The translations under genes were made by a program, and so were the position numbers. Source: an uncultured delta proteobacterium (lineage in GTDB: Bacteria; Desulfobacterota; Desulfobacteria; Desulfobacterales; UBA2156). From it: a stretch of 64,000 nucleotides of DNA. The first letter of the stretch is position 1; every line of letters begins with the position of its first letter. Under the pieces are notes generated by a model that saw only the letters and a program-made list of their open reading frames with translations, ran no database searches and was not told the DNA's origin. The DNA lies in NCBI GenBank assembly GCA_963736855.1, contig CAVTQK010000015.1, positions 512,001-576,000 of the forward strand, written 5' to 3'. This document shows, piece by piece, positions 2,917 through 25,264 of this stretch.

Positions 2917-4323
2917 TCAATCTGTTTTCCTCAAATGCCCCCTGAAGTAGGAGAAAAAAATACCGACTGTACACATTGCTGCGAAAAGAACAAAGCATAT
3001 CCGCATCGCCTTTAAAAAAAAAGGGTACTGATCCGGGGTTAATTTCTCGTTTCCGATGAAGATGGAAAAGACGACCATGACGATGGACATGCTGACCATT
3101 TGCCCCAAGAGGCGCATGGTGGCCACGGCGCCTGAGGCAATCCCGAAGAGCCGATTTTCAACCGCGCCCATAATGGCGCTCATATTGGGTGAAGAAAACA
3201 AGGCGAATCCGAAGCCGATGCAGGCGAGTGTCCCGGCGATATAAAATTTTTCCGTCTGTGGTCCGATGAATGAGAAAATGAAAAGTCCTGTTGCGGTAAT
3301 GGCCATCCCGATGGATGCCAGTATCCTCGGTTCCACCCGATCGGATGTCTTCCCGGCAAAGGGAGAAAAGATCGTCATGATTACCGGTTGGGCCACGAGC
3401 AACGTTCCGGCAGCTTGCGGGGTGAGGCCTTTGATATATTGCAGATACAGGCTGAGCAAGAATGTGATCCCGAAGGTGGCTGAATAATGGATCAGCGCAG
3501 CCAGACTGGAAAATGCAAAGACCTTGTTTTGAACAAACAGACGGACCTCGAAAATCGGATAACGGACGCGGAGCTCATAACGAATGAAAACCAAAAGCAG
3601 AATCATCCCGACGAAGATAAGGCCTACGGCCCAAAACTTTGGCAAAGCGGTGGTGCCGTAAACCAATGCCAGAATAGAGAATCCATAAAGGAAGCTGCCG
3701 AGAAGATCCAGCCTTTCCCCCCGGGCATCGGCCCACTCTCCTTTTAAGAGGGTTAATGTGATGTAAACCGATGCTCCCCCGAGAGGGACCCCCGCGATGA
3801 ACAGGCTCCTCCATCCCAATTGTTGGGTCAAGAATCCTCCCACAAAAGGGCCCGTGGACAAGCCTGCATAAACCGCCGCGACATAGATTCCAATGGCCTT
3901 TCCTCGTCTTTGTGGCGGGAAAATAGACGTGATGATGGCCATTCCGGTTGTGACGAAAAGGGCTGCGCCGATGCCTTGAAACACACGAAAGAGGATGAGG
4001 ATGCTCACCGAAGTCGAAAACGCCGCAAAAAGAGAGGAAAAGGTAAAAAGGGCGAGGCCCGATGTAAAGACCTTTTTTCTTCCGTAAAGGTCGGCGATTT
4101 TTCCGGCCGGCACCAGTACAACGGCAACGGCCAGGAGAAAAGCGTGGGCGATCCAGCCCAGTTCAACGGCATTCACGCCGAATTCTTTCTGGATCGCCGG
4201 GAGAGCCACGTTGACGGAGGAGATCATAAAGGGTCCCACGAAGGATGAAACCGTGGTCACCCACAAGGCGGTCTTTTCTTGAGTAGCCGGATCCGGAGGT
4301 TGGATTGGATGCATCGGGTTCAT
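2917..4323 (-). CDS. MFS transporter, DHA2 (EmrB/QacA-like, 14 TM)
   Basis: SSVNVALPAI, GKIADLYGRKK motif A, GPFVGGFLT motif C; many TM segments. Confidence 0.9.
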   Translation of the reverse strand: MNPMHPIQPPDPATQEKTALWVTTVSSFVGPFMISSVNVALPAIQKEFGVNAVELGWIAHAFLLAVAVVLVPAGKIADLYGRKKVFTSGLALFTFSSLFAAFSTSVSILILFRVFQGIGAALFVTTGMAIITSIFPPQRRGKAIGIYVAAVYAGLSTGPFVGGFLTQQLGWRSLFIAGVPLGGASVYITLTLLKGEWADARGERLDLLGSFLYGFSILALVYGTTALPKFWAVGLIFVGMILLLVFIRYELRVRYPIFEVRLFVQNKVFAFSSLAALIHYSATFGITFLLSLYLQYIKGLTPQAAGTLLVAQPVIMTIFSPFAGKTSDRVEPRILASIGMAITATGLFIFSFIGPQTEKFYIAGTLACIGFGFALFSSPNMSAIMGAVENRLFGIASGAVATMRLLGQMVSMSIVMVVFSIFIGNEKLTPDQYPFFLKAMRICFVLFAAMCTVGIFFSYFRGHLRKTD

Positions 4324-16585: not shown

Positions 16586-17257
16586 GTGAATGTATGGGTC
16601 ATCGGTTGCGGAAAATTCGGATCCAAGGCCGTGACCCAGTTACTGCGGTCAGCACCGGATGTCTCCATCACAGTGGCGGATCCGAATCCTGAAAAGTTGG
16701 TTCCGTGGGATGGACGGATAGAAATCGTCATCGGTGACGGTATTGAATTTATGACCCGGCATCTTAAAGCCGGGCCGTGGCCCGAATGGATCATTCCTGC
16801 TGCCCCGGTCCATGTGGCCTATCGATGGATCTTGGAAAATGCCTCCGGTGTTCGGCTGGAGACGATTCCCGTGCCGGAGCCCTTTGTTTCAGCGTTTCCG
16901 AATCCGTTCCGTGGAAAAGCAGGCGAGCTTTTTTTAAGCTTTGCTGATTTTCTCTGTCCCGAGGATTGCCCGGAACCGGCAGATACGTGTACGGTAACCG
17001 GCCATCCCAGGAAGGAGAACCTGTACACACTTCTCGAAAACCTCAGCCGACCCGGTTGGCCTTCCGTTGTCATCAGGAGTCGTTTGCTTTTTCCAGGTGT
17101 CGGGGGTTATCCTCCGCGTGCCCTGTATGAAATGAAAAACCGCATTGAAAACATCGAAGGGACCTTTCTTTTGAGTACTGCCTGCCGGTGCCACGGCGTT
17201 CTTCATGCACTCAAAACGGTCCGGATCGCCTTTTCTGAATCCGAGTTACAAGTCTGA
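16586..17257 (+). CDS. Rossmann-fold (TrkA-N-like) protein with a Cys-rich C-terminal domain
   Basis: VIGCGKFG dinucleotide-binding motif; CPEDCPEP..C and STACRCHG. Confidence 0.7.
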   Translation: MNVWVIGCGKFGSKAVTQLLRSAPDVSITVADPNPEKLVPWDGRIEIVIGDGIEFMTRHLKAGPWPEWIIPAAPVHVAYRWILENASGVRLETIPVPEPFVSAFPNPFRGKAGELFLSFADFLCPEDCPEPADTCTVTGHPRKENLYTLLENLSRPGWPSVVIRSRLLFPGVGGYPPRALYEMKNRIENIEGTFLLSTACRCHGVLHALKTVRIAFSESELQV

Positions 17258-17267
17258 TGAGTTCAAG

Positions 17268-18269
17268 ATGACTTCCAAGGAGCTCTTACCTGTGCACATG
17301 AATCGAAGAAGCAAGATATTGTACCGAATGGCCGCCCGGATTATTATTGGCTCTATATTTATGCCGCTTTTGGTCCAAGGAGTGTGCCGGGGATCTGATG
17401 AAGAGAGCAAGATTCCGGTCTTTGTGAGTATTTTGCCCCAGCGCTACTTTGTGATAAAGATCGGGGGTCCGAGGATCCATGTTTCGACCATGGTGCTGCC
17501 GGGGGCAAATCCGCATATCTTCGAGCCCAAGCCGAGCCAAATGGTCGAATTGATCAAGGCGAAGGTTTATTTCGCCGCCGGTGTTCCTTTTGAAACGACC
17601 TGGCTGGCCCGGATCGCATCGGCCAATCCCCGCATGGTCATCGTCCACACCGACGCCGGTATCGAGAAAAAAAACATGGATGTGCATCAATACCATGAGG
17701 CCGAATCCATTTCGGGGAGCCAACCTGCGGATCATGCTCGGCGTTTTCGGGAGAGCCGGACCGGGCATTTACATGAAGGCGAAAAAGATCCGCACACATG
17801 GCTTTCCCCTCCCTTGGCTAAAATCCATGCCCGAAACATACTCAATGCATTGGTGGATGTCGACCCGTCTTTCCAGGGATTGTATGAGGCCAATTATCAA
17901 AAACTGGAAATGGAAATTGATGCAGTGGATGCCCGGTTGAAGGCCGTTTTTTCCGGAGTCGGTCAGAGGACAGCGTTCATGGTATTTCACCCGGCATGGG
18001 GGTACTTTGCAGAAACTTACAATCTCAAGCAGGTTCCGGTGGAGATGGAAGGAAAAGAGCCGAAACCTGCAGATCTTCGGCATTTGATCCGCTGGGCGAA
18101 AAATAATAATATCAAGGCTATTTTTACACAGAAACAGTTTTCCGCCAAAAGCGCGGAAGTGATTGCGGGAGCCATCAACGCTCAGGTCATCTATGCCGAT
18201 CCGCTTGCAGAGGAGTGGTCGGAAAACCTGCTTCTTGTGGCTGAGAAATTCAGGGATGCCTTGAGGTAG
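17268..18269 (+). CDS. znuA: Zn/Mn ABC transporter substrate-binding protein (start uncertain)
   Basis: NPHIFEP, His-rich loop, DPHTWLSP, FHPAWGYF. Confidence 0.88.
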   Translation: MTSKELLPVHMNRRSKILYRMAARIIIGSIFMPLLVQGVCRGSDEESKIPVFVSILPQRYFVIKIGGPRIHVSTMVLPGANPHIFEPKPSQMVELIKAKVYFAAGVPFETTWLARIASANPRMVIVHTDAGIEKKNMDVHQYHEAESISGSQPADHARRFRESRTGHLHEGEKDPHTWLSPPLAKIHARNILNALVDVDPSFQGLYEANYQKLEMEIDAVDARLKAVFSGVGQRTAFMVFHPAWGYFAETYNLKQVPVEMEGKEPKPADLRHLIRWAKNNNIKAIFTQKQFSAKSAEVIAGAINAQVIYADPLAEEWSENLLLVAEKFRDALR

Positions 18270-18275
18270 CCGGTC

Positions 18276-19031
18276 ATGATTCGGGAAGTCATACGGATCC
18301 GGGATCTGTGGTTTTCCTACAACGGGGACCCGGTCCTTAAAGAAATCAATCTGGTGATTAAGGAGAAAGAATTTTTGGCTCTTATCGGCCCCAACGGGGG
18401 TGGAAAAACCACCTTGTTGAAGCTGATGTTGGGTCTTCTGAAGCCGGATCGGGGGAGTATTCTAATATTCGATCGATCTCCTCATGAGGTCGCTCACCGC
18501 ATCGGATATGTACCTCAGAGTCTTCACACCAATAAAGGCGTTCCCGTGACGGCTCTTGAGGTTGTACTTATGGGACGCCGGATGCCGGGATCCGCGTGGC
18601 GCAGATATCAGAGCCGGGATAAGAATGCGGCCCGAAGGGCCATGGAACAGATGGGGATATGGAGCTTGCGCAACCGATGGGTTGGCGCGCTTTCCGGTGG
18701 ACAGCGGCAGCGCCTCCTGATCTCCCGGGCGTTGGCGGCAGAACCCGAGATGCTTTTCCTGGACGAGCCCGCGGCCAATATCGATGCAAAAGGACAGGGT
18801 GAATTGTACGACCTGCTGAAGGCGCTCAATAAGCACATGACCATCATTCTGGTCAGTCATGACCTCATGGTGGTATCCAGCTACAGTCACGCGGTGGCCT
18901 GCGTCAATGAGCGCTTGCATTACCACGATGAAGCCGAAATTACTGAGGAAATGATGGAAGCCTTCCAGTGCCCGGTGGACTTGATCGCTCACGGACAGCC
19001 CCATCGGGTCTTGAGACCCCACGAGAAATAG
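18276..19031 (+). CDS. znuC: Zn/Mn ABC transporter ATP-binding protein
   Basis: GPNGGGKTT, LSGGQRQR, LDEP, SHD. Confidence 0.9.
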   Translation: MIREVIRIRDLWFSYNGDPVLKEINLVIKEKEFLALIGPNGGGKTTLLKLMLGLLKPDRGSILIFDRSPHEVAHRIGYVPQSLHTNKGVPVTALEVVLMGRRMPGSAWRRYQSRDKNAARRAMEQMGIWSLRNRWVGALSGGQRQRLLISRALAAEPEMLFLDEPAANIDAKGQGELYDLLKALNKHMTIILVSHDLMVVSSYSHAVACVNERLHYHDEAEITEEMMEAFQCPVDLIAHGQPHRVLRPHEK

Positions 19032-19042
19032 AAGAAGAAAAG

Positions 19043-19867
19043 ATGCTGGACGCTCTTCAACTCGATTTTTTCAGGCACGCCGTTGCCGTTGGTTTACTGG
19101 CCAGCCTCCTGTGCGGTCTCATCGGCACCCTTGTCGTAATCAACCGGCTGGTGTTTCTTTCCGGCGGGATCGCTCACGCCGCGTATGGAGGAATCGGATT
19201 ATCCGTTTTTTTGGGAATTCCCTTCCTTGCGGGGACCTTGGGGTTTGCGCTGATGTCTGCTTGGGTCATGGCGGCCATCACATTGAAAGCCAAACATCGC
19301 TCCGATACCGTCATCGGTGTTGTCTGGGCGGTGGGGATGGCTCTGGGTATCATCCTGATCGACCTGACGCCCGGATATCATGTGGACCTGATGAGTTACC
19401 TTTTCGGAAGCATTTTGACCGTAACCCGGGAAGACATATATATCCTGAGCGGGGCGGGGCTTTTCGTGATTCTGGTGGTTGGCTATTTTTATCATGACCT
19501 GTCATCCATGGCGTTCGACGAGGAGTTCGCAAGACTTCGAGGTGTTCCGGTCAAAGGGCTGTATTTTCTTTTGGTTTGCATGGTCGCCCTAAGCGTGGTT
19601 TTGATCATTCGGGTGGTGGGACTTATTCTCGTCATGGCTCTAATGACGATACCCCCTTACATCGCGGAAGGCTACACCGCATCGCTTCGCTCCATGATGC
19701 TTCTGTCGGTGTGTTTAAGCGTTCTTTTCATGACGGCAGGCCTGTATCTCTCGTTTTCCTTCAACCTGACTTCCGGTGCCGCCATCATTCTGACGGCTGC
19801 GGTCGGTTTTTTTATTTCCATGGGGCTCAAAAGCCTTTTAAAGGGTCGAAAAAAGACAGCCCGATGA
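19043..19867 (+). CDS. znuB: Zn/Mn ABC transporter permease
   Basis: GGIAHAAYGG, SYLFGSIL, FDEEFA (ABC-3 family). Confidence 0.9.
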   Translation: MLDALQLDFFRHAVAVGLLASLLCGLIGTLVVINRLVFLSGGIAHAAYGGIGLSVFLGIPFLAGTLGFALMSAWVMAAITLKAKHRSDTVIGVVWAVGMALGIILIDLTPGYHVDLMSYLFGSILTVTREDIYILSGAGLFVILVVGYFYHDLSSMAFDEEFARLRGVPVKGLYFLLVCMVALSVVLIIRVVGLILVMALMTIPPYIAEGYTASLRSMMLLSVCLSVLFMTAGLYLSFSFNLTSGAAIILTAAVGFFISMGLKSLLKGRKKTAR

Positions 19868-20250
19868 GAACCGGTGTCCAACCCTTAGGCATGTTGCGGG
19901 TCATATTCTGTGCGATTTGTCTGTTTTTTTCCGGATGTGCCGCAGGAACATGGTCAGATATCGATGTGGGAAAGGATCCTTTGTCCGTTTTGGTTCGCCT
20001 TTACGAGGGCCCTCTCGATCATATGGACGCAGTGCGGGGCGGAGAATGCCCCATGTATCCGTCGTGTTCCGCTTATGCCAAGGCGGCGCTTGAAAAGCAT
20101 GGTTTTCTCGCCGGATGGATAATGGCATCGGATCGTCTCATGCGGTGCGGACGGGATGAGGTCAAACTCAGCCCCGGGATCTTCATCAACGGAAAATGGA
20201 GGATTTACGATCCGCTGAAAAAAAACGATCATTGGTGGTCCGAAAGATAG
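19864..20250 (+). CDS. YidD-like (membrane protein insertion efficiency / hemolytic domain) lipoprotein
   Basis: CPMYPSCSAYAKAALEKHG...DRLMRC; FSGC lipobox-like; ATGA overlap with znuB stop. Confidence 0.75.
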   Translation: MRTGVQPLGMLRVIFCAICLFFSGCAAGTWSDIDVGKDPLSVLVRLYEGPLDHMDAVRGGECPMYPSCSAYAKAALEKHGFLAGWIMASDRLMRCGRDEVKLSPGIFINGKWRIYDPLKKNDHWWSER

Positions 20251-20280
20251 ATCTTGATGCTTTAGAGCGATCCTGTTTTT

Positions 20281-20802
20281 TTAACCGGTCGGGTCCCGTA
20301 TGTCATATTGATGACGGCAGGTCTCCAAGCAGGATAGGCAATCGGCAGGATTTTTTGTATCCGTTGCGCAATAATTCAGAAATGCCTGTACCCAATCGCT
20401 TCCCGTGCGGGGGCAATTATCGATGAATTTAATGAATTTCAATAATTTATCTATGGTCTGGGCATCTATGGCATGTTCCATACGACAGGCCGCGGCCTCT
20501 GCCCGCTGTGCATCGACCTGGAGGACCCTTAAGAGAAAGTCTTTCAGTATGTCGTGGCGACGGGTGATTTCACGGGCGATCCGGGTCCCTTTTTCGGTGA
20601 GGGTGATGAACCGGTAAGGCGCGTAGTGAATGAGCCCTTTCTCCCCGAGGCTTTTGAGCGCTCCCGTGACGGCCGCCGGCTGTACCCCCATCCGTTCGGA
20701 GATATCCTTGACCCGGGCGACCTTATTGGTTTTTTCCAAGTCCAAAATGATTTCCAAGTAGTCCTCGAGACTTTCCGAAAGCGGTATCTCCTTGAGTTTC
20801 AT
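20281..20802 (-). CDS. DtxR/MntR-family metal-dependent repressor with Cys-rich tail
   Basis: SLEDYLEII, ARVKDIS, ACRMEH; divergent from feoAB. Confidence 0.9.
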   Translation of the reverse strand: MKLKEIPLSESLEDYLEIILDLEKTNKVARVKDISERMGVQPAAVTGALKSLGEKGLIHYAPYRFITLTEKGTRIAREITRRHDILKDFLLRVLQVDAQRAEAAACRMEHAIDAQTIDKLLKFIKFIDNCPRTGSDWVQAFLNYCATDTKNPADCLSCLETCRHQYDIRDPTG

Positions 20803-20825
20803 ATTGCCTCCTTTTGAATCATGAT

Positions 20826-20916
20826 TAACATAATGTATAATAATTTAAAGTCAACAAAAATATTTTATGAGATATTAAAAATATATTGACTTAATAATAA
20901 AGTTAAGTGTACTGAA
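20826..20916. promoter_or_regulatory. Divergent sigma70-like promoters and a candidate DtxR-family operator
   Basis: TTGACT on + (20886) and on - (20849-20854); imperfect palindrome TTAAGTGTACTGAA (20903-20916). Confidence 0.4.
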
Positions 20917-20983
20917 AACATATCTTTTTAATATCGACTCCTAAAAATAAGGACAAGTTTTCGCGTCCTCCGGAGGTGAAACC

Positions 20984-21217
20984 ATGCGGCGCATCCTGAT
21001 GCGGCAAATGAAAGATAACCAAAGCGGCACGATTGCAGCCATTAAAGCTAACGGAGAACTCGGCCGGAGGATCCGGGATATGGGCTTGGTCCCCGGTATG
21101 CCCATCAAGGTCCAGGGGAGGGCTCCTCTGTATGATCCGGTCGCATTGAGGGTTTTAAATTTCACCGTGGCGCTCAGAAACAAAGAGGCCGACTTCATCG
21201 AGGTCGAGGTGGAATGA
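20984..21217 (+). CDS. feoA: Ferrous iron transport protein A
   Basis: RRIRDMGLVPG...RAPLYDP...ALRNKEA. Confidence 0.92.
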   Translation: MRRILMRQMKDNQSGTIAAIKANGELGRRIRDMGLVPGMPIKVQGRAPLYDPVALRVLNFTVALRNKEADFIEVEVE

Positions 21218-23373
21218 AAAAGGAATCCATTATTGCGCTGGCCGGAAACCCCAATTCCGGAAAGACCACCCTTTTCAATGCCCTCACCGGCGCCCGACAG
21301 CATGTGGGGAATTATCCAGGGGTGACCGTCGAAAAAAAAGAGGGGATATATACGACCGATGGAACTCGGATTCGGATCGTTGATCTTCCCGGAACATACT
21401 CATTGACCGCGTACTCTCTGGAAGAGGTGGTTACCCGCGATTTTTTGGTCAACGAGAAACCCGATCTCGTTATCGACATCGTGGATGCTTCCAACCTGGA
21501 AAGGAATCTTTACCTGACAATACAATTTCTCGAGTTGGGAATTCCCCTCTGTATTGCTTTGAACATGATGGATGTGGCAAAAGGCCGAGGCATCGAGATC
21601 GACGCTCAAAAACTCAGCCGACTCCTGAGAGTCCCTGTGGTTCCGACCGTGGCGCGTATAGGCCGGGGAAAAAGGGAATTGATGGAAACTGCGGAAAAGT
21701 CGTCATCGGCCGAGGGAGCGCCTCCCCTGAGGATCTCCTACGGCGATGACCTGGATCGCGCCATCGTGGAGATGGAAAAAGAGATACTTCAACACCAATT
21801 CCTGATCCAGATTTACCCGGCGCGCTGGATCGCCTTGAAATACCTCGAAAATGACGAACAGATCCTTATCAAAGGAAAGGGAGAGAACCCGGAAGTTTCG
21901 AAACGCATTCAGCAGGTGGTACAAAAAGTCTCCGATCACCTGATGGCCACCACAGGCAGCTATCCTGAGGCCATCATTGCCGACCAGCGGTACGGATACA
22001 TTTATTCCATCATCAAACAGGGCGTCCTCACCCAACGTCCGGATCAGCACCGCCTCTACCACTCCGATAAAATCGATAGGGTGCTCACTCACCGGGTCTT
22101 AGGGCCCCTCATCATGTTCATGATTATTTTCGGGCTTTACCATTTGACGTTCAACTACAGCAAAAGGCCGGTCATCTGGGTGGAATATCTCTTCGAATGG
22201 ATTAGGAACGCGGCCTCCGCATCGCTTCCCGATGGGATGCTCAAGTCCCTAATCGTTTCAGGCGTCATCGATGGAGTCGGCGGTGTCCTGACTTTTGTTC
22301 CCCTGATCCTGATGATGTTTTTCGGGATCGCCATTTTAGAGGATTCCGGATATCTGGCCAGAATGGCGTTCATGCTGGATCGCGTTTTCAGCCTGTTCGG
22401 ACTTCACGGGAGTTCAGTCATGGCCTATATCATCTCCGGAGGGATTGCCGGCGGATGTGCCGTTCCGGGGGTAATGGCCACGCGCACCCTGCGATCTCCA
22501 AAAGAGCGGCTGGCGACACTGTTGACGGCACCCTTTATGAATTGCGGTGCCAAACTCCCGATCTTTGCCCTTTTAATTGCGGCCTTTTTCAAGGAAAACG
22601 AAGCCGTTTTCATGTTCTCCCTCACTTTGGTTTCATGGATCGGGGCGCTTCTCGTGGCTAAATTGTTGCGCGTCACCGTTATACGGGGAGAGCCGACACC
22701 GTTTGTGATGGAGTTGCCTCCCTATCGGCTTCCCATATTCAAAGGCTTGTTGATCCATTCTTGGGAGCGCACGTGGCAATACATCAAGAAGGCTGGAACG
22801 GTAATTTTAGCAATTTCCATCCTTCTGTGGGCCATGATGAGTTTTCCCAGGCCCCCGGTGTCTGAAAAAAATGCCATCCGGAACGAATTGAAGCCGGCAG
22901 CGCTTTCCGGTGCGGTTCAGACGGAAAGCTCCCAGGCAATGGAAGAGAATGCAAATGCCGAAGTCGCGTTGCGCTATTCGGCGGCGGGGCGCATCGGCAC
23001 CGCCCTGGAAAGGATCAGCCGCCTGGCCGGATTTGATTGGCGTATCAACATTGCGTTGATCGGCGGCTTTGCCGCAAAGGAAGTTGTGGTATCGACTCTG
23101 GGAACCGCATATTCCTTGGGGGAAAAGATCGATGCGGAAAAAAGCGGCCCTTTGTCTGAAAAGCTTTCTAAATCCGCGGGGTGGCGTCCGTTGACGGCTC
23201 TGAGTCTCGTGATTTTTATAATGTTTTACGCGCCGTGTTTCATCACCGTCATATGCATCGCGCGGGAGGCCGGATCTTGGAAGTGGGGGGCCTTCTCCAT
23301 GTTTTTTAACACTGCCTTGGCTTTCATTCTCGCGGTGGCGCTTTTCCAGATCGGCTCATTGCTGGGATATTGA
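21214..23373 (+). CDS. feoB: Ferrous iron transport protein B
   Basis: GNPNSGKTT, VGNYPGVTV, DLPGTYSL, EDSGYLAR, PFMNCGAKLP. Confidence 0.96.
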   Translation: MKKESIIALAGNPNSGKTTLFNALTGARQHVGNYPGVTVEKKEGIYTTDGTRIRIVDLPGTYSLTAYSLEEVVTRDFLVNEKPDLVIDIVDASNLERNLYLTIQFLELGIPLCIALNMMDVAKGRGIEIDAQKLSRLLRVPVVPTVARIGRGKRELMETAEKSSSAEGAPPLRISYGDDLDRAIVEMEKEILQHQFLIQIYPARWIALKYLENDEQILIKGKGENPEVSKRIQQVVQKVSDHLMATTGSYPEAIIADQRYGYIYSIIKQGVLTQRPDQHRLYHSDKIDRVLTHRVLGPLIMFMIIFGLYHLTFNYSKRPVIWVEYLFEWIRNAASASLPDGMLKSLIVSGVIDGVGGVLTFVPLILMMFFGIAILEDSGYLARMAFMLDRVFSLFGLHGSSVMAYIISGGIAGGCAVPGVMATRTLRSPKERLATLLTAPFMNCGAKLPIFALLIAAFFKENEAVFMFSLTLVSWIGALLVAKLLRVTVIRGEPTPFVMELPPYRLPIFKGLLIHSWERTWQYIKKAGTVILAISILLWAMMSFPRPPVSEKNAIRNELKPAALSGAVQTESSQAMEENANAEVALRYSAAGRIGTALERISRLAGFDWRINIALIGGFAAKEVVVSTLGTAYSLGEKIDAEKSGPLSEKLSKSAGWRPLTALSLVIFIMFYAPCFITVICIAREAGSWKWGAFSMFFNTALAFILAVALFQIGSLLGY

Positions 23374-23385
23374 AAGGGGGATTCG

Positions 23386-23634
23386 ATGGAATGGGTGATC
23401 GTAGCCATCATTGTCGGCCTGGCGGCATTTTTTGTTGGAAGAAAGTTTTATCGCATGTTCCAAACGAAGGGCGCGAACGGATGCGGCTGCGGATGCACAT
23501 CCTGCGGGATTCCAAGGGATATCTGTGATCAGCATTTTGTCTTTCAAGACCGGCCCGGTCATGACTCACCGGCTCAGGTGGGTTTGCCACAACTGCACTT
23601 TCCTAAAGTAAGAGGGGATTCCAAAGACGCCTGA
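23386..23634 (+). CDS. FeoB-associated Cys-rich membrane protein
   Basis: N-terminal TM followed by CGCGCTSC; directly downstream of feoB. Confidence 0.75.
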   Translation: MEWVIVAIIVGLAAFFVGRKFYRMFQTKGANGCGCGCTSCGIPRDICDQHFVFQDRPGHDSPAQVGLPQLHFPKVRGDSKDA

Positions 23635-24746
23635 CCATCGGGAGCGTTTGTTTCCGAAGCAGGCCTCTTTCCGGCATGCATTCGTGTTACGGAGAGAAAC
23701 TTTCGGATCAAAGGTTTAATGGAAAGCGCCCCCAGAAACAGAGCGCCCAGGATTTCTAAAAACTCAGGGACAATCTCTTTCGGGGATTGCAGCAAAGCTT
23801 TTGCGGACCAGGCGAAATACCCATAGATCCAGTCCAGAATCAGCCCACAGATCACTGAAGAGATCGCAATGGCGCCAACGTAAATGGCTGTGGATCGTTT
23901 GCCGAAAGTAGCCAAAAGGACCGTTATGGAGGTGATGTTGGTGGCCGGTCCTGCGAGCAAAAAGACCAATGCGGCACCGGGGCTGACTCCTTTCAGGATA
24001 AAAGCAGCGGCAATGGGCGTGGAGGCGGTGGCACAGATATAGAGGGGGATCCCCACTCCCAGCATAACGAGCATCGATGGAAGTCCGCCTCCTAAATAGC
24101 GACTCATCAGGTCTGCGGGGATAAAACCGGTGATCAGTCCAGCCAGGAACAATCCCAAAAAGAACCATCCGGCCATACCTTGCCAAAGACCTTTAAAAGC
24201 AAATCCGAAACCGGCTTTAGCTTTCTCGAAAACGGTGTGGTGGTTTTTATGTTTCTCAGGATCGCAGTTCACACCGTCGCAGCAGTTATCCACCGGGCAG
24301 CGGAGGTCGGGCCTCAGGGATTCAGGGTTTTTCCGCCTGTCTGCCAGGTTTTCGGCAATCCCTGCCGCGGCAGCGGTGATGAAAGCCGCTGTAGGCCGGG
24401 CAATGGTCATGATTGGATCCATGAGAGCGTAAGTCACGGCGATGGAGTCGATCCCGGATTCGGGAGTTGAGATTAAAAAGGCGCTCACAGCACCTTTGCT
24501 CGCCCCTTGCTTGCGCAGCGACACGGCTGCGGGTAACACCCCGCACGATCAAAGGGGAACGAGAATTCCAAGGAATGCGGCTTTGAAGACCGATCGGATC
24601 CTTCCGCCTCCCAGGTGGTTGGCGACGATGTCGGGATTGAGAAATGCGCGCAAAAGCCCACTGACGATCAAGCCGAAAATGACGTAAATGGATACTTCTT
24701 GTAAGAGCTTCCAGGCCTCTAAGAACGGGGTAAGGAAAAAATTCAT
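23574..24746 (-). CDS. DUF318/ArsP (SO_0444-like) metal permease, probable selenoprotein (in-frame TGA at 24549-24551)
   Basis: Reads LGILVPL-TGA-SCGVLPAA in one frame (family motif PLCSCG); second repeat PLYICATASTP is intact. Confidence 0.85.
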
Positions 24747-24801
24747 ATTTGCAATCCCATGCTCAAGCATTATTTACCTTGGGCTTCAGACTTTAATTTT
24801 T

Positions 24802-25176
24802 TCATTCCCGGATATGATCGAGTCCGATGCGTAAAAAGTCCAATACGTGTTCGTCATCCAGAGAATAATAAAAAATCTGGCCTTCCCTCCGCTTTTTTAC
24901 CAGGTTCAGGTCTTTGAGCCGACGCAACTGATGAGAGATAGCCGATTCGCTCAGCTCTAAGTAGGCCGCCAAATCGCATACGCACATTTCTCCCCCTATC
25001 AGCGCCAGGGAAATCTTCAAACGCGTGGGATCCCCGAGGGCCTTGTAAACATAGGTGAGTCGGGTTAACTCCTTATCCGGGACCGCATCCAAAATAGCCC
25101 TTTCGATGCGTTCCCGATGGATGGTACGTACCGAACAGAGTAAACTATCCATTTTTTTCTCTATATTAGTAGTCAT
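24802..25176 (-). CDS. ArsR/SmtB-family metal-sensing repressor (CadC/CzrA-like)
   Basis: KALGDPTRLKI, EMCVCDLA, SAISHQLR, YYSLDDEHV. Confidence 0.92.
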   Translation of the reverse strand: MTTNIEKKMDSLLCSVRTIHRERIERAILDAVPDKELTRLTYVYKALGDPTRLKISLALIGGEMCVCDLAAYLELSESAISHQLRRLKDLNLVKKRREGQIFYYSLDDEHVLDFLRIGLDHIRE

Positions 25177-25181
25177 ATAGA

Positions 25182-25207
25182 AATATTTAAATAATTGATC
25201 ATATATT
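25182..25207. promoter_or_regulatory. Candidate SmtB/CzrA-type 12-2-12 operator
   Basis: AATATTTAAATAATTGATCATATATT imperfect inverted repeat immediately upstream of the ArsR gene. Confidence 0.55.
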
Positions 25208-25264
25208 CATATATTGGATTGCCCCTTGTCAATGGGTATCTACACTTGTATGGATAGAAGCCAA

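Follow-up and report, generated by a model that had tools for sequence, protein, structure and literature searches.

The permeases closest to the one analysed here belong to the SO_0444 family, whose founding member in Shewanella oneidensis is, in the accessible part of the source (PMC3219624), required for growth under zinc and copper stress (ZnSO4 or CuCl2), listed as complemented and predicted to be controlled by a ZntR orthologue; that part of the source makes no mention of selenocysteine (Sec). According to the accessible portion of PMC10092412, a homolog from Nitratiruptor is induced by cadmium and copper. A form of the family with Sec in a U-S-C motif has been named, with WP_014809615.1 of Desulfomonile tiedjei as its example (accessible sections of Haft and Gwadz, bioRxiv 10.1101/2022.07.06.499078), and a 2026 review and catalogue tabulates the SO_0444 family with one Sec and the motif UxC, as the initial annotation had suspected in saying that Sec forms of such permeases might be on record. 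The ArsP organoarsenical exporters and SaoE share with our permease the Pfam family PF03773 and the C-S-C motif, and the same sections of Haft and Gwadz give no Sec members for SaoE. Sec residues near the C-terminus, cut off by annotation and proposed to be metal ligands, occur in the UXX-star families (NF041114, NF041211), in SaoC and in KCU-star. The name UXX-star refers to a Sec placed just before the stop codon.

The permease of the window, by which we mean the whole 64,000-nucleotide stretch of DNA under analysis, resembles the known U-S-C form of SO_0444 in the site itself, in scoring above the family cut-off and in its broad sulfate-reducer lineage, but differs from the catalogued form in a probable second Sec, located in a tail beyond the 351-position family model. 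In contrast to Shewanella SO_0444, it has as its likely controller an ArsR/SmtB protein of the alpha5/alpha3N type. It is separated from SaoE and ArsP by a SaoE score below the cut-off and by a neighbouring regulator lacking C-V-C-x-x-C, and from the families with Sec near the stop because it matches none of their models (the 399-aa read-through product had no match to NF041114 or NF041211) and because here the motif forms the tail of an exporter that crosses the membrane several times. Since the U-S-C form is already published, the Sec at site 74 is ordinary and enlarges a catalogued family by one member; the initial annotation recognized this internal Sec and missed the probable second one at the apparent stop. 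Taking the sequence comparisons together, the locus is probably one operon for a metal exporter with two Sec residues (74 and 399), each served by its own hairpin.

The permease gene lies at 23559..24770 on the minus strand and encodes 403 aa if both UGA codons are read as Sec. The minus-strand interval 24770..23574 is a single frame broken by one internal stop only, a TGA at 24551-24549 in the context G-I-L-V-P-L-*-S-C-G-V-L-P-A-A, so that the two open reading frames listed on either side of it do share one frame, as had been seen at the outset. Read-through joins them into one protein, first estimated at some 390 aa; the single product stands, and its length is corrected to 398 aa if it ends at the following TGA and 403 aa if that TGA is read too. 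A second Met at 24746 (ATG) offers an alternative start giving a product 8 aa shorter, and the alignments of relatives mostly begin at residue 7-9. The assignment to the DUF318/ArsP permeases is borne out by PF03773 (156.7 bits against a cut-off of 32.3) and can be made more exact with NF033936, the SO_0444 family Cu/Zn efflux transporter (394.2 bits against a cut-off of 300), whose match covers residues 20-352 and leaves the tail outside the model; the SaoE model NF040736 gave the read-through permease 171.4 bits, below its cut-off of 325. The database protein at this locus (P0002) is a 304-aa fragment, the gene having been split by gene callers. The seemingly broken permease gene is intact, and its internal stop is a selenocysteine.

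The predicted structure model (pLDDT 80, pTM 0.76) found its best structural match in ArsB (Z 13.0, rmsd 4.7, 277 aligned). Twelve rows of transporters came next with Z of 8.2-12.3, after which Z dropped to 5.2; these ArsB-like matches are what we take to be elevator-type carriers. No homolog of solved structure was found by sequence, and Foldseek gave no match with E of 0.001 or lower. Residues 74-76 and 244-246 (Y-I-C246 in the second) fall at matching helix breaks of two repeats in the model, and this correspondence suggests a metal-binding transport site, while the basic residues following the last helix suggest that the tail, for which pLDDT is below 50, is cytoplasmic. The same genome holds a distant PF03773-like paralog (G000:C23:127192-128373) with C-S-C and no in-frame TGA, and a set of distant homologs (L092, L096, L098-L103, L107, L111, L151-L170) extends about 650-730 codons beyond C-S-C, which points to fusion with further domains.

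In the case of the internal UGA (24549..24551, minus strand), we examined 212 loci, which after removal of 6 without a readable motif and 19 duplicates left 187 distinct ones. The codon at site 74 was TGA in 29 of these, TGC in 105 and TGT in 53 (Cys in 158 altogether), and in none was it TAA or TAG; the alternation of TGA with TGY that had been suggested as a check is thus present, and the 28 other TGA loci have intact frames. The columns U74-S75-C76 are invariant in an alignment of 83 rows. Because TGA recurs at this point with TGC or TGT in all the remaining loci and never TAA or TAG, codon 74 is no sequencing slip, and contigs from four public runs, one of them (X1) perhaps from the source sample, span it with no difference listed; among public runs, no RNA data set with the locus was listed. 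We regard it as almost certain from these comparisons that codon 74 is decoded as Sec at the conserved Cys, as originally proposed. The tree, midpoint-rooted and built with site 1 masked and the tail omitted, placed the U74 rows at four or more positions under open forks, resolving no single origin of Sec74; three loci are absent from it (L040, L127 with TGA at site 74 and L169 with TGC).

Two hairpins downstream of this UGA had been put forward as SECIS candidates, and both exist, only one of them at a suitable distance. Hairpin 1 (24528..24545, minus strand; +4..+21, loop at +10) and hairpin 2 (24514..24531, minus strand; +18..+35, 6-bp stem, 6-nt loop from +24 with G second) overlap and compete, with energies of -11.1 and -9.8 kcal/mol, respectively, in isolated folds. 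We applied by hand the bSECIS rule, which asks for a loop of 3-9 nt, a stem of 4-16 bp, G at loop position 1-2, a spacing of 16-37 nt and an energy of -7.5 kcal/mol or lower. Hairpin 2 agrees with it throughout (a 6-nt loop with G second, a stem of 6 bp, a spacing of 23 nt and -9.8 kcal/mol in isolation), whereas the loop of hairpin 1 begins 9 nt from the UGA against the 16-37 nt required. All five core pairs of hairpin 2 were present in 16 of the 29 TGA loci and in 1 of the 158 Cys loci; the corresponding numbers for a complete hairpin 1 were 8/29 and 3/158. In a 52-nt fold hairpin 1 wins over hairpin 2, and the farther TGA loci lack hairpin 2 in the same register. By its sequence features hairpin 2 appears the better SECIS candidate of the two.

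The genome is equipped for Sec insertion: selA, selB, selC and selD, which it had been advised to look for, were all four found, the tRNA-Sec having the anticodon TCA and SelD itself an in-frame TGA. As for relatives, selA occurs in 58/61 of them and in 41/43 carriers of the phylum sample; the two carriers without a selA match, G194 and G342, both have selB and tRNA-Sec (one also selD), so that their missing selA are probably assembly gaps. Because selA is almost universal, co-occurrence discriminates little, and no informative Sec-less control was found among the relatives and phylum carriers. A genome-wide motif scan for read-through candidates was too noisy and served only to pick the SelD and FdhA contexts. 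Two other plus-strand places in the genome have an in-frame TGA, one near 137800 of G000:C6 with 1416 open codons downstream and a SECIS-like hairpin (loop at +23), the other near 100130 of G000:C23 with 388 open codons downstream.

The apparent stop of the permease is likewise a TGA (23574..23576, minus strand). It follows C-S-C-G-K-P-T, and the tail would read C-x-C-x-x-P-T-U-A-G-E-S, with the true stop proposed four codons past Sec399 (23559..23561, minus strand), at a next stop that is variable in relatives; these read C-x3-T-TGA-G-C-S. We compared the C-termini of 166 loci with a complete end, setting aside the 21 of 187 without one. Defining the Thr-ending class from the protein upstream of the TGA only, the terminal codon was TGA in 62/63 Thr-ending relatives against 50/103 others, counts that are not independent because the loci are kin. 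Relatives ending in C-x3-T had TGA in 38/38, the first set gave 51/52 Thr-ending against 39/73 others, and a separately drawn phylum sample 11/11 against 11/30. Thr was also the last residue of 44 of 119 database homologs. Beyond the tail TGA, Gly follows in 44/62 loci (with all four codons in use), Cys in 41/62 (both codons) and Ser in 32/62 (both AGY and TCN), and this variety of codons for G-C-S indicates selection on the protein. The next in-frame stop, mostly four codons on, was TGA in 41 of the 62 loci, TAA in 10 and TAG in 8, with none within 13 codons in 3.

In three homologs of the Desulfosarcina clade (L060, L118, L140), one from D. widdelii and two from metagenomes, a Cys codon is aligned with the tail TGA: D. 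widdelii reads C-G-C-S-H where D. alkanivorans reads TGA-G-C-R-H, and the proteins measure 386 aa and, when cut at the TGA, 381 aa. Cultured relatives that combine Cys74 with a TGA tail are Desulfosarcina alkanivorans, D. variabilis and Desulfonema magnum. In the tree without the tail, the Cys tails fall at two places of a 26-row clade (SH-aLRT 100) in which all of the remaining 23 rows carry the TGA tail, which, in a midpoint-rooted tree, suggests repeated change from Sec to Cys. Judging from these comparisons, the tail UGA is very probably Sec in the clade at large.

A candidate SECIS for Sec399 lies at 23544..23564 (minus strand), with a stem of 3+5 bp, the loop GGC at +19..+21 and its 3' half in the 3' UTR. 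Under the bSECIS rule it qualifies throughout (a 3-nt loop with G first, an upper stem of 5 bp, a spacing of 18 nt and -8.1 kcal/mol as an isolated fold), and its loop starts at +19 where that of site 74 starts at +24; in the FdhA and SelD hairpins of this genome the loops start at +19 to +24. Pairing of +14..+18 with +22..+26 in at least 4 of 5 pairs was found in 33/63 Thr-ending loci against 10/103 others. In the phylum sample the stem in this fixed register appears in only 3/11 Thr-ending loci, and in several loci it is shifted out of that register. Among 27 rows picked by hand (24 TGA tails in common register and 3 Cys tails), 74% of the cells were paired compared with 63% in shuffles and 67% after a slide of one column, and 6 of the 7 pairs had changed on both sides. 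Of the 2797 long-ORF ends in the genome, 9 are followed by the strict pattern of the tail hairpin, a number that includes the site from which the pattern was derived. In a 47-nt fold (z -0.92) the tail hairpin gives way to a competing structure of lower energy.

Whether the window's own lineage still reads the tail UGA is a narrower matter. The tail here is U-A-G-E-S, without the Cys that follows in the wider clade, and because of this loss read-through is less sure. One rival explanation, unlikely though deserving serious weight, would make of it something else: that the gene is now a single selenoprotein, with Sec74 decoded and the tail TGA a plain stop in this lineage, and that the tail is a relic whose hairpin is a decaying SECIS, a structure of the mRNA end or a sequence kept by an overlapping antisense gene. 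Such a gene exists, a FeoB-associated Cys-rich small membrane protein (PF12669, residues 4-41) at 23386-23634 on the plus strand, which runs antisense over the last codons of the permease and the tail hairpin. In accord with a relic, the four residues past the TGA are unconserved in the genus (AGES, ARAS, PDTA, ASTS, SGAA), with the Cys lost, and one member (G004, locus L026) has lost the tail hairpin. Moreover, in G005 of the same genus (L194, about 3340-3500) arsR and most of the permease are deleted and the tail remains, and run X4 has a contig that joins window position 23674 to 25209, with arsR and most of the permease gone as well; in both, the promoter/operator region is fused to roughly the final 33 codons, tail TGA and hairpin included. 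As the tail outlasts the deletion of its gene, its retention here can have other causes than decoding; D. widdelii, too, keeps a remnant of the hairpin after the change to Cys, so that such hairpins can linger.

Against a relic stands the constancy of the rest. The genus clade keeps P-T-TGA in 6/6 rows, and in 5/6 has both the stop exactly four codons on and at least 4/5 pairs of the stem, of which one pair is compensated in L027 and L115. In G002 and G003, furthermore, the gene for the FeoB-associated protein is at a distance of about 1.4-1.6 kb and does not overlap, and TGA and hairpin are still kept. Weighing both sides, we consider it likely from the sequence features that the tail UGA is still read as Sec in the organism of the window.

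That the tail TGA should be an ordinary stop throughout the clade, with the hairpin a terminator or stability element, is very improbable. In favour of it, a hairpin beyond a stop codon is nothing unusual, no stop is used more often in this genome than TGA (776/1626 long ORFs), and six RefSeq proteins (WP_155315992.1, WP_207679427.1, WP_419663103.1, WP_372677235.1, WP_319404741.1 and WP_319259963.1), in records possibly updated since, match translations ending at Thr, one residue before the tail TGA. To this are opposed the near-exclusive use of TGA after Thr, the synonymous variation in G-C-S and the Cys homologs in register, as well as the rarity of a T-run, which accompanies just 4 of 51 tail hairpins and thereby disfavours a terminator role. 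The notion that codon 74 reflects a pseudogene, a sequencing error or a genome-wide reading of UGA as Trp has a negligible probability, since the split gene call and the deleted copies in the genus are countered by the intact frames of the other TGA loci with their TGA-specific hairpin, by the agreement of the four runs, and by a tRNA-Sec in a genome where TGA is a common stop.

Upstream of the permease by 31 nt lies an ArsR/SmtB metalloregulator gene (24802..25176, minus strand; NF033788, 95 bits against a cut-off of 55), whose product has an alpha5 signature D-x-H-x10-H-x2-E, C-V-C in alpha3 and an N-terminal Cys, features that the accessible part of PMC8790569 ascribes to SmtB-type repressors sensing Zn, Cu or Cd. 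An arsR homolog was found in 106 of the 190 fetched loci, with the alpha5 signature in 93 of the 106. The motif of arsenic-type ArsR proteins is C-x-C-x-x-C, and none of the 106 neighbouring homologs has C-V-C-x-x-C. An imperfect inverted repeat of SmtB type (25183..25206, minus strand), a candidate operator, is situated a short way downstream of the sequence TTGACA (25232-25227), and a comparable repeat precedes 73 of the 106 arsR homologs when the pattern is a loose one, used with no control by shuffling; the promoter scan did not call this region, the promoter and terminator scan as a whole being at chance level.

The neighbourhood is similarly one of metals, since 17205-23373 of the window is a metal-homeostasis cluster with a znuABC-type importer, a YidD-like gene, a DtxR/MntR-type regulator, feoA and feoB, and in Desulfosarcina-like loci feoAB likewise come after the permease, there on the same strand. 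The neighbours scanned were feo, znu-type and dtxR-type genes, and an ars operon with an arsenic-type ArsR was not found among them. Of the initial proposal of a metal or metalloid permease under an adjacent ArsR regulator, the linkage stands, and regulator and neighbourhood point to Zn, Cu or Cd rather than to arsenic. By analogy with SO_0444 and from the regulator signature, the substrate is quite probably of the Cu/Zn type.

Placing these results into a mechanism, the operon would be governed by the SmtB-type repressor, presumably released by ions of the Zn/Cu/Cd type, which would control a secondary exporter of the SO_0444/ArsP family. In the permease mRNA, SelB and tRNA-Sec would read both UGA codons as Sec, with a separate hairpin following each of them. 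In the membrane, Sec74 would take the place of the leading Cys of the C-S-C motif, and Sec399 would belong to a flexible, probably cytoplasmic, Cys-rich tail that would catch metal and hand it to the pump. For such a role of the tail as a hand-off arm we see the chances as evenly balanced. An undecoded tail UGA costs five residues only, and the pump of relatives with Cys74 should therefore work with or without selenium; in the window's lineage Sec74 is present as well, and any pump there would consequently depend on selenium. Selenium dependence has been argued to be a liability for resistance proteins in the case of mercury resistance (accessible sections of Haft and Gwadz, bioRxiv 10.1101/2022.07.06.499078), and a Sec placed near the terminus would avoid its cost.

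The tail Sec is probably unannotated so far, and the tail, judged by its sequence, is probably common to many sulfate-reducer relatives. No paper on it was found, although a description of the tail may stand in Haft and Tolstoy 2025, in the journal paper by Haft and Gwadz or in the supplements; our literature searches returned nothing on a DUF318 selenoprotein, on a double or second Sec, or on this tail in the literature on C-terminal Sec, and SO_0444 does not come up in a term search of the main text and one supplement of BSepDB and of the main text of deep-Sep. We advance tentatively, giving it slightly less than an even chance, the broader view that a large branch of Desulfobacterota SO_0444 proteins has an unannotated C-x3-T-U-G-C tail with its own SECIS, more widespread than U-S-C and perhaps older, and that this tail would be an optional selenium-dependent metal-capture arm, the pump being made without selenium and a selenol ligand gained with it; the window gene would be a double selenoprotein of this kind. 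Should the tail Sec be confirmed, many proteins annotated as ordinary Cys permeases would become selenoproteins and the few known Sec-containing transporters would be added to. Cultured Desulfosarcina species with Sec and with Cys tails make the matter directly testable.

Variants of both sites were also seen. The U-S-C homolog L242 (G247) has a further in-frame TGA 83 codons past site 1, where its central loop reads S-T-*-A-D-N-H-C-S-C; a hairpin whose loop is at +21 comes after this codon, which may be a third Sec position in the family. In P0135, which clusters with L066, the sequence S-T-G-G-C-S-H has a Gly where the tail Sec would stand, possibly by a TGA-to-GGA change or an assembly error. 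In L214 (G380) the permease ends in C-G-C-G-H followed by TGA and then by a stem with 4/5 pairs in the same register, which may represent a variant tail.
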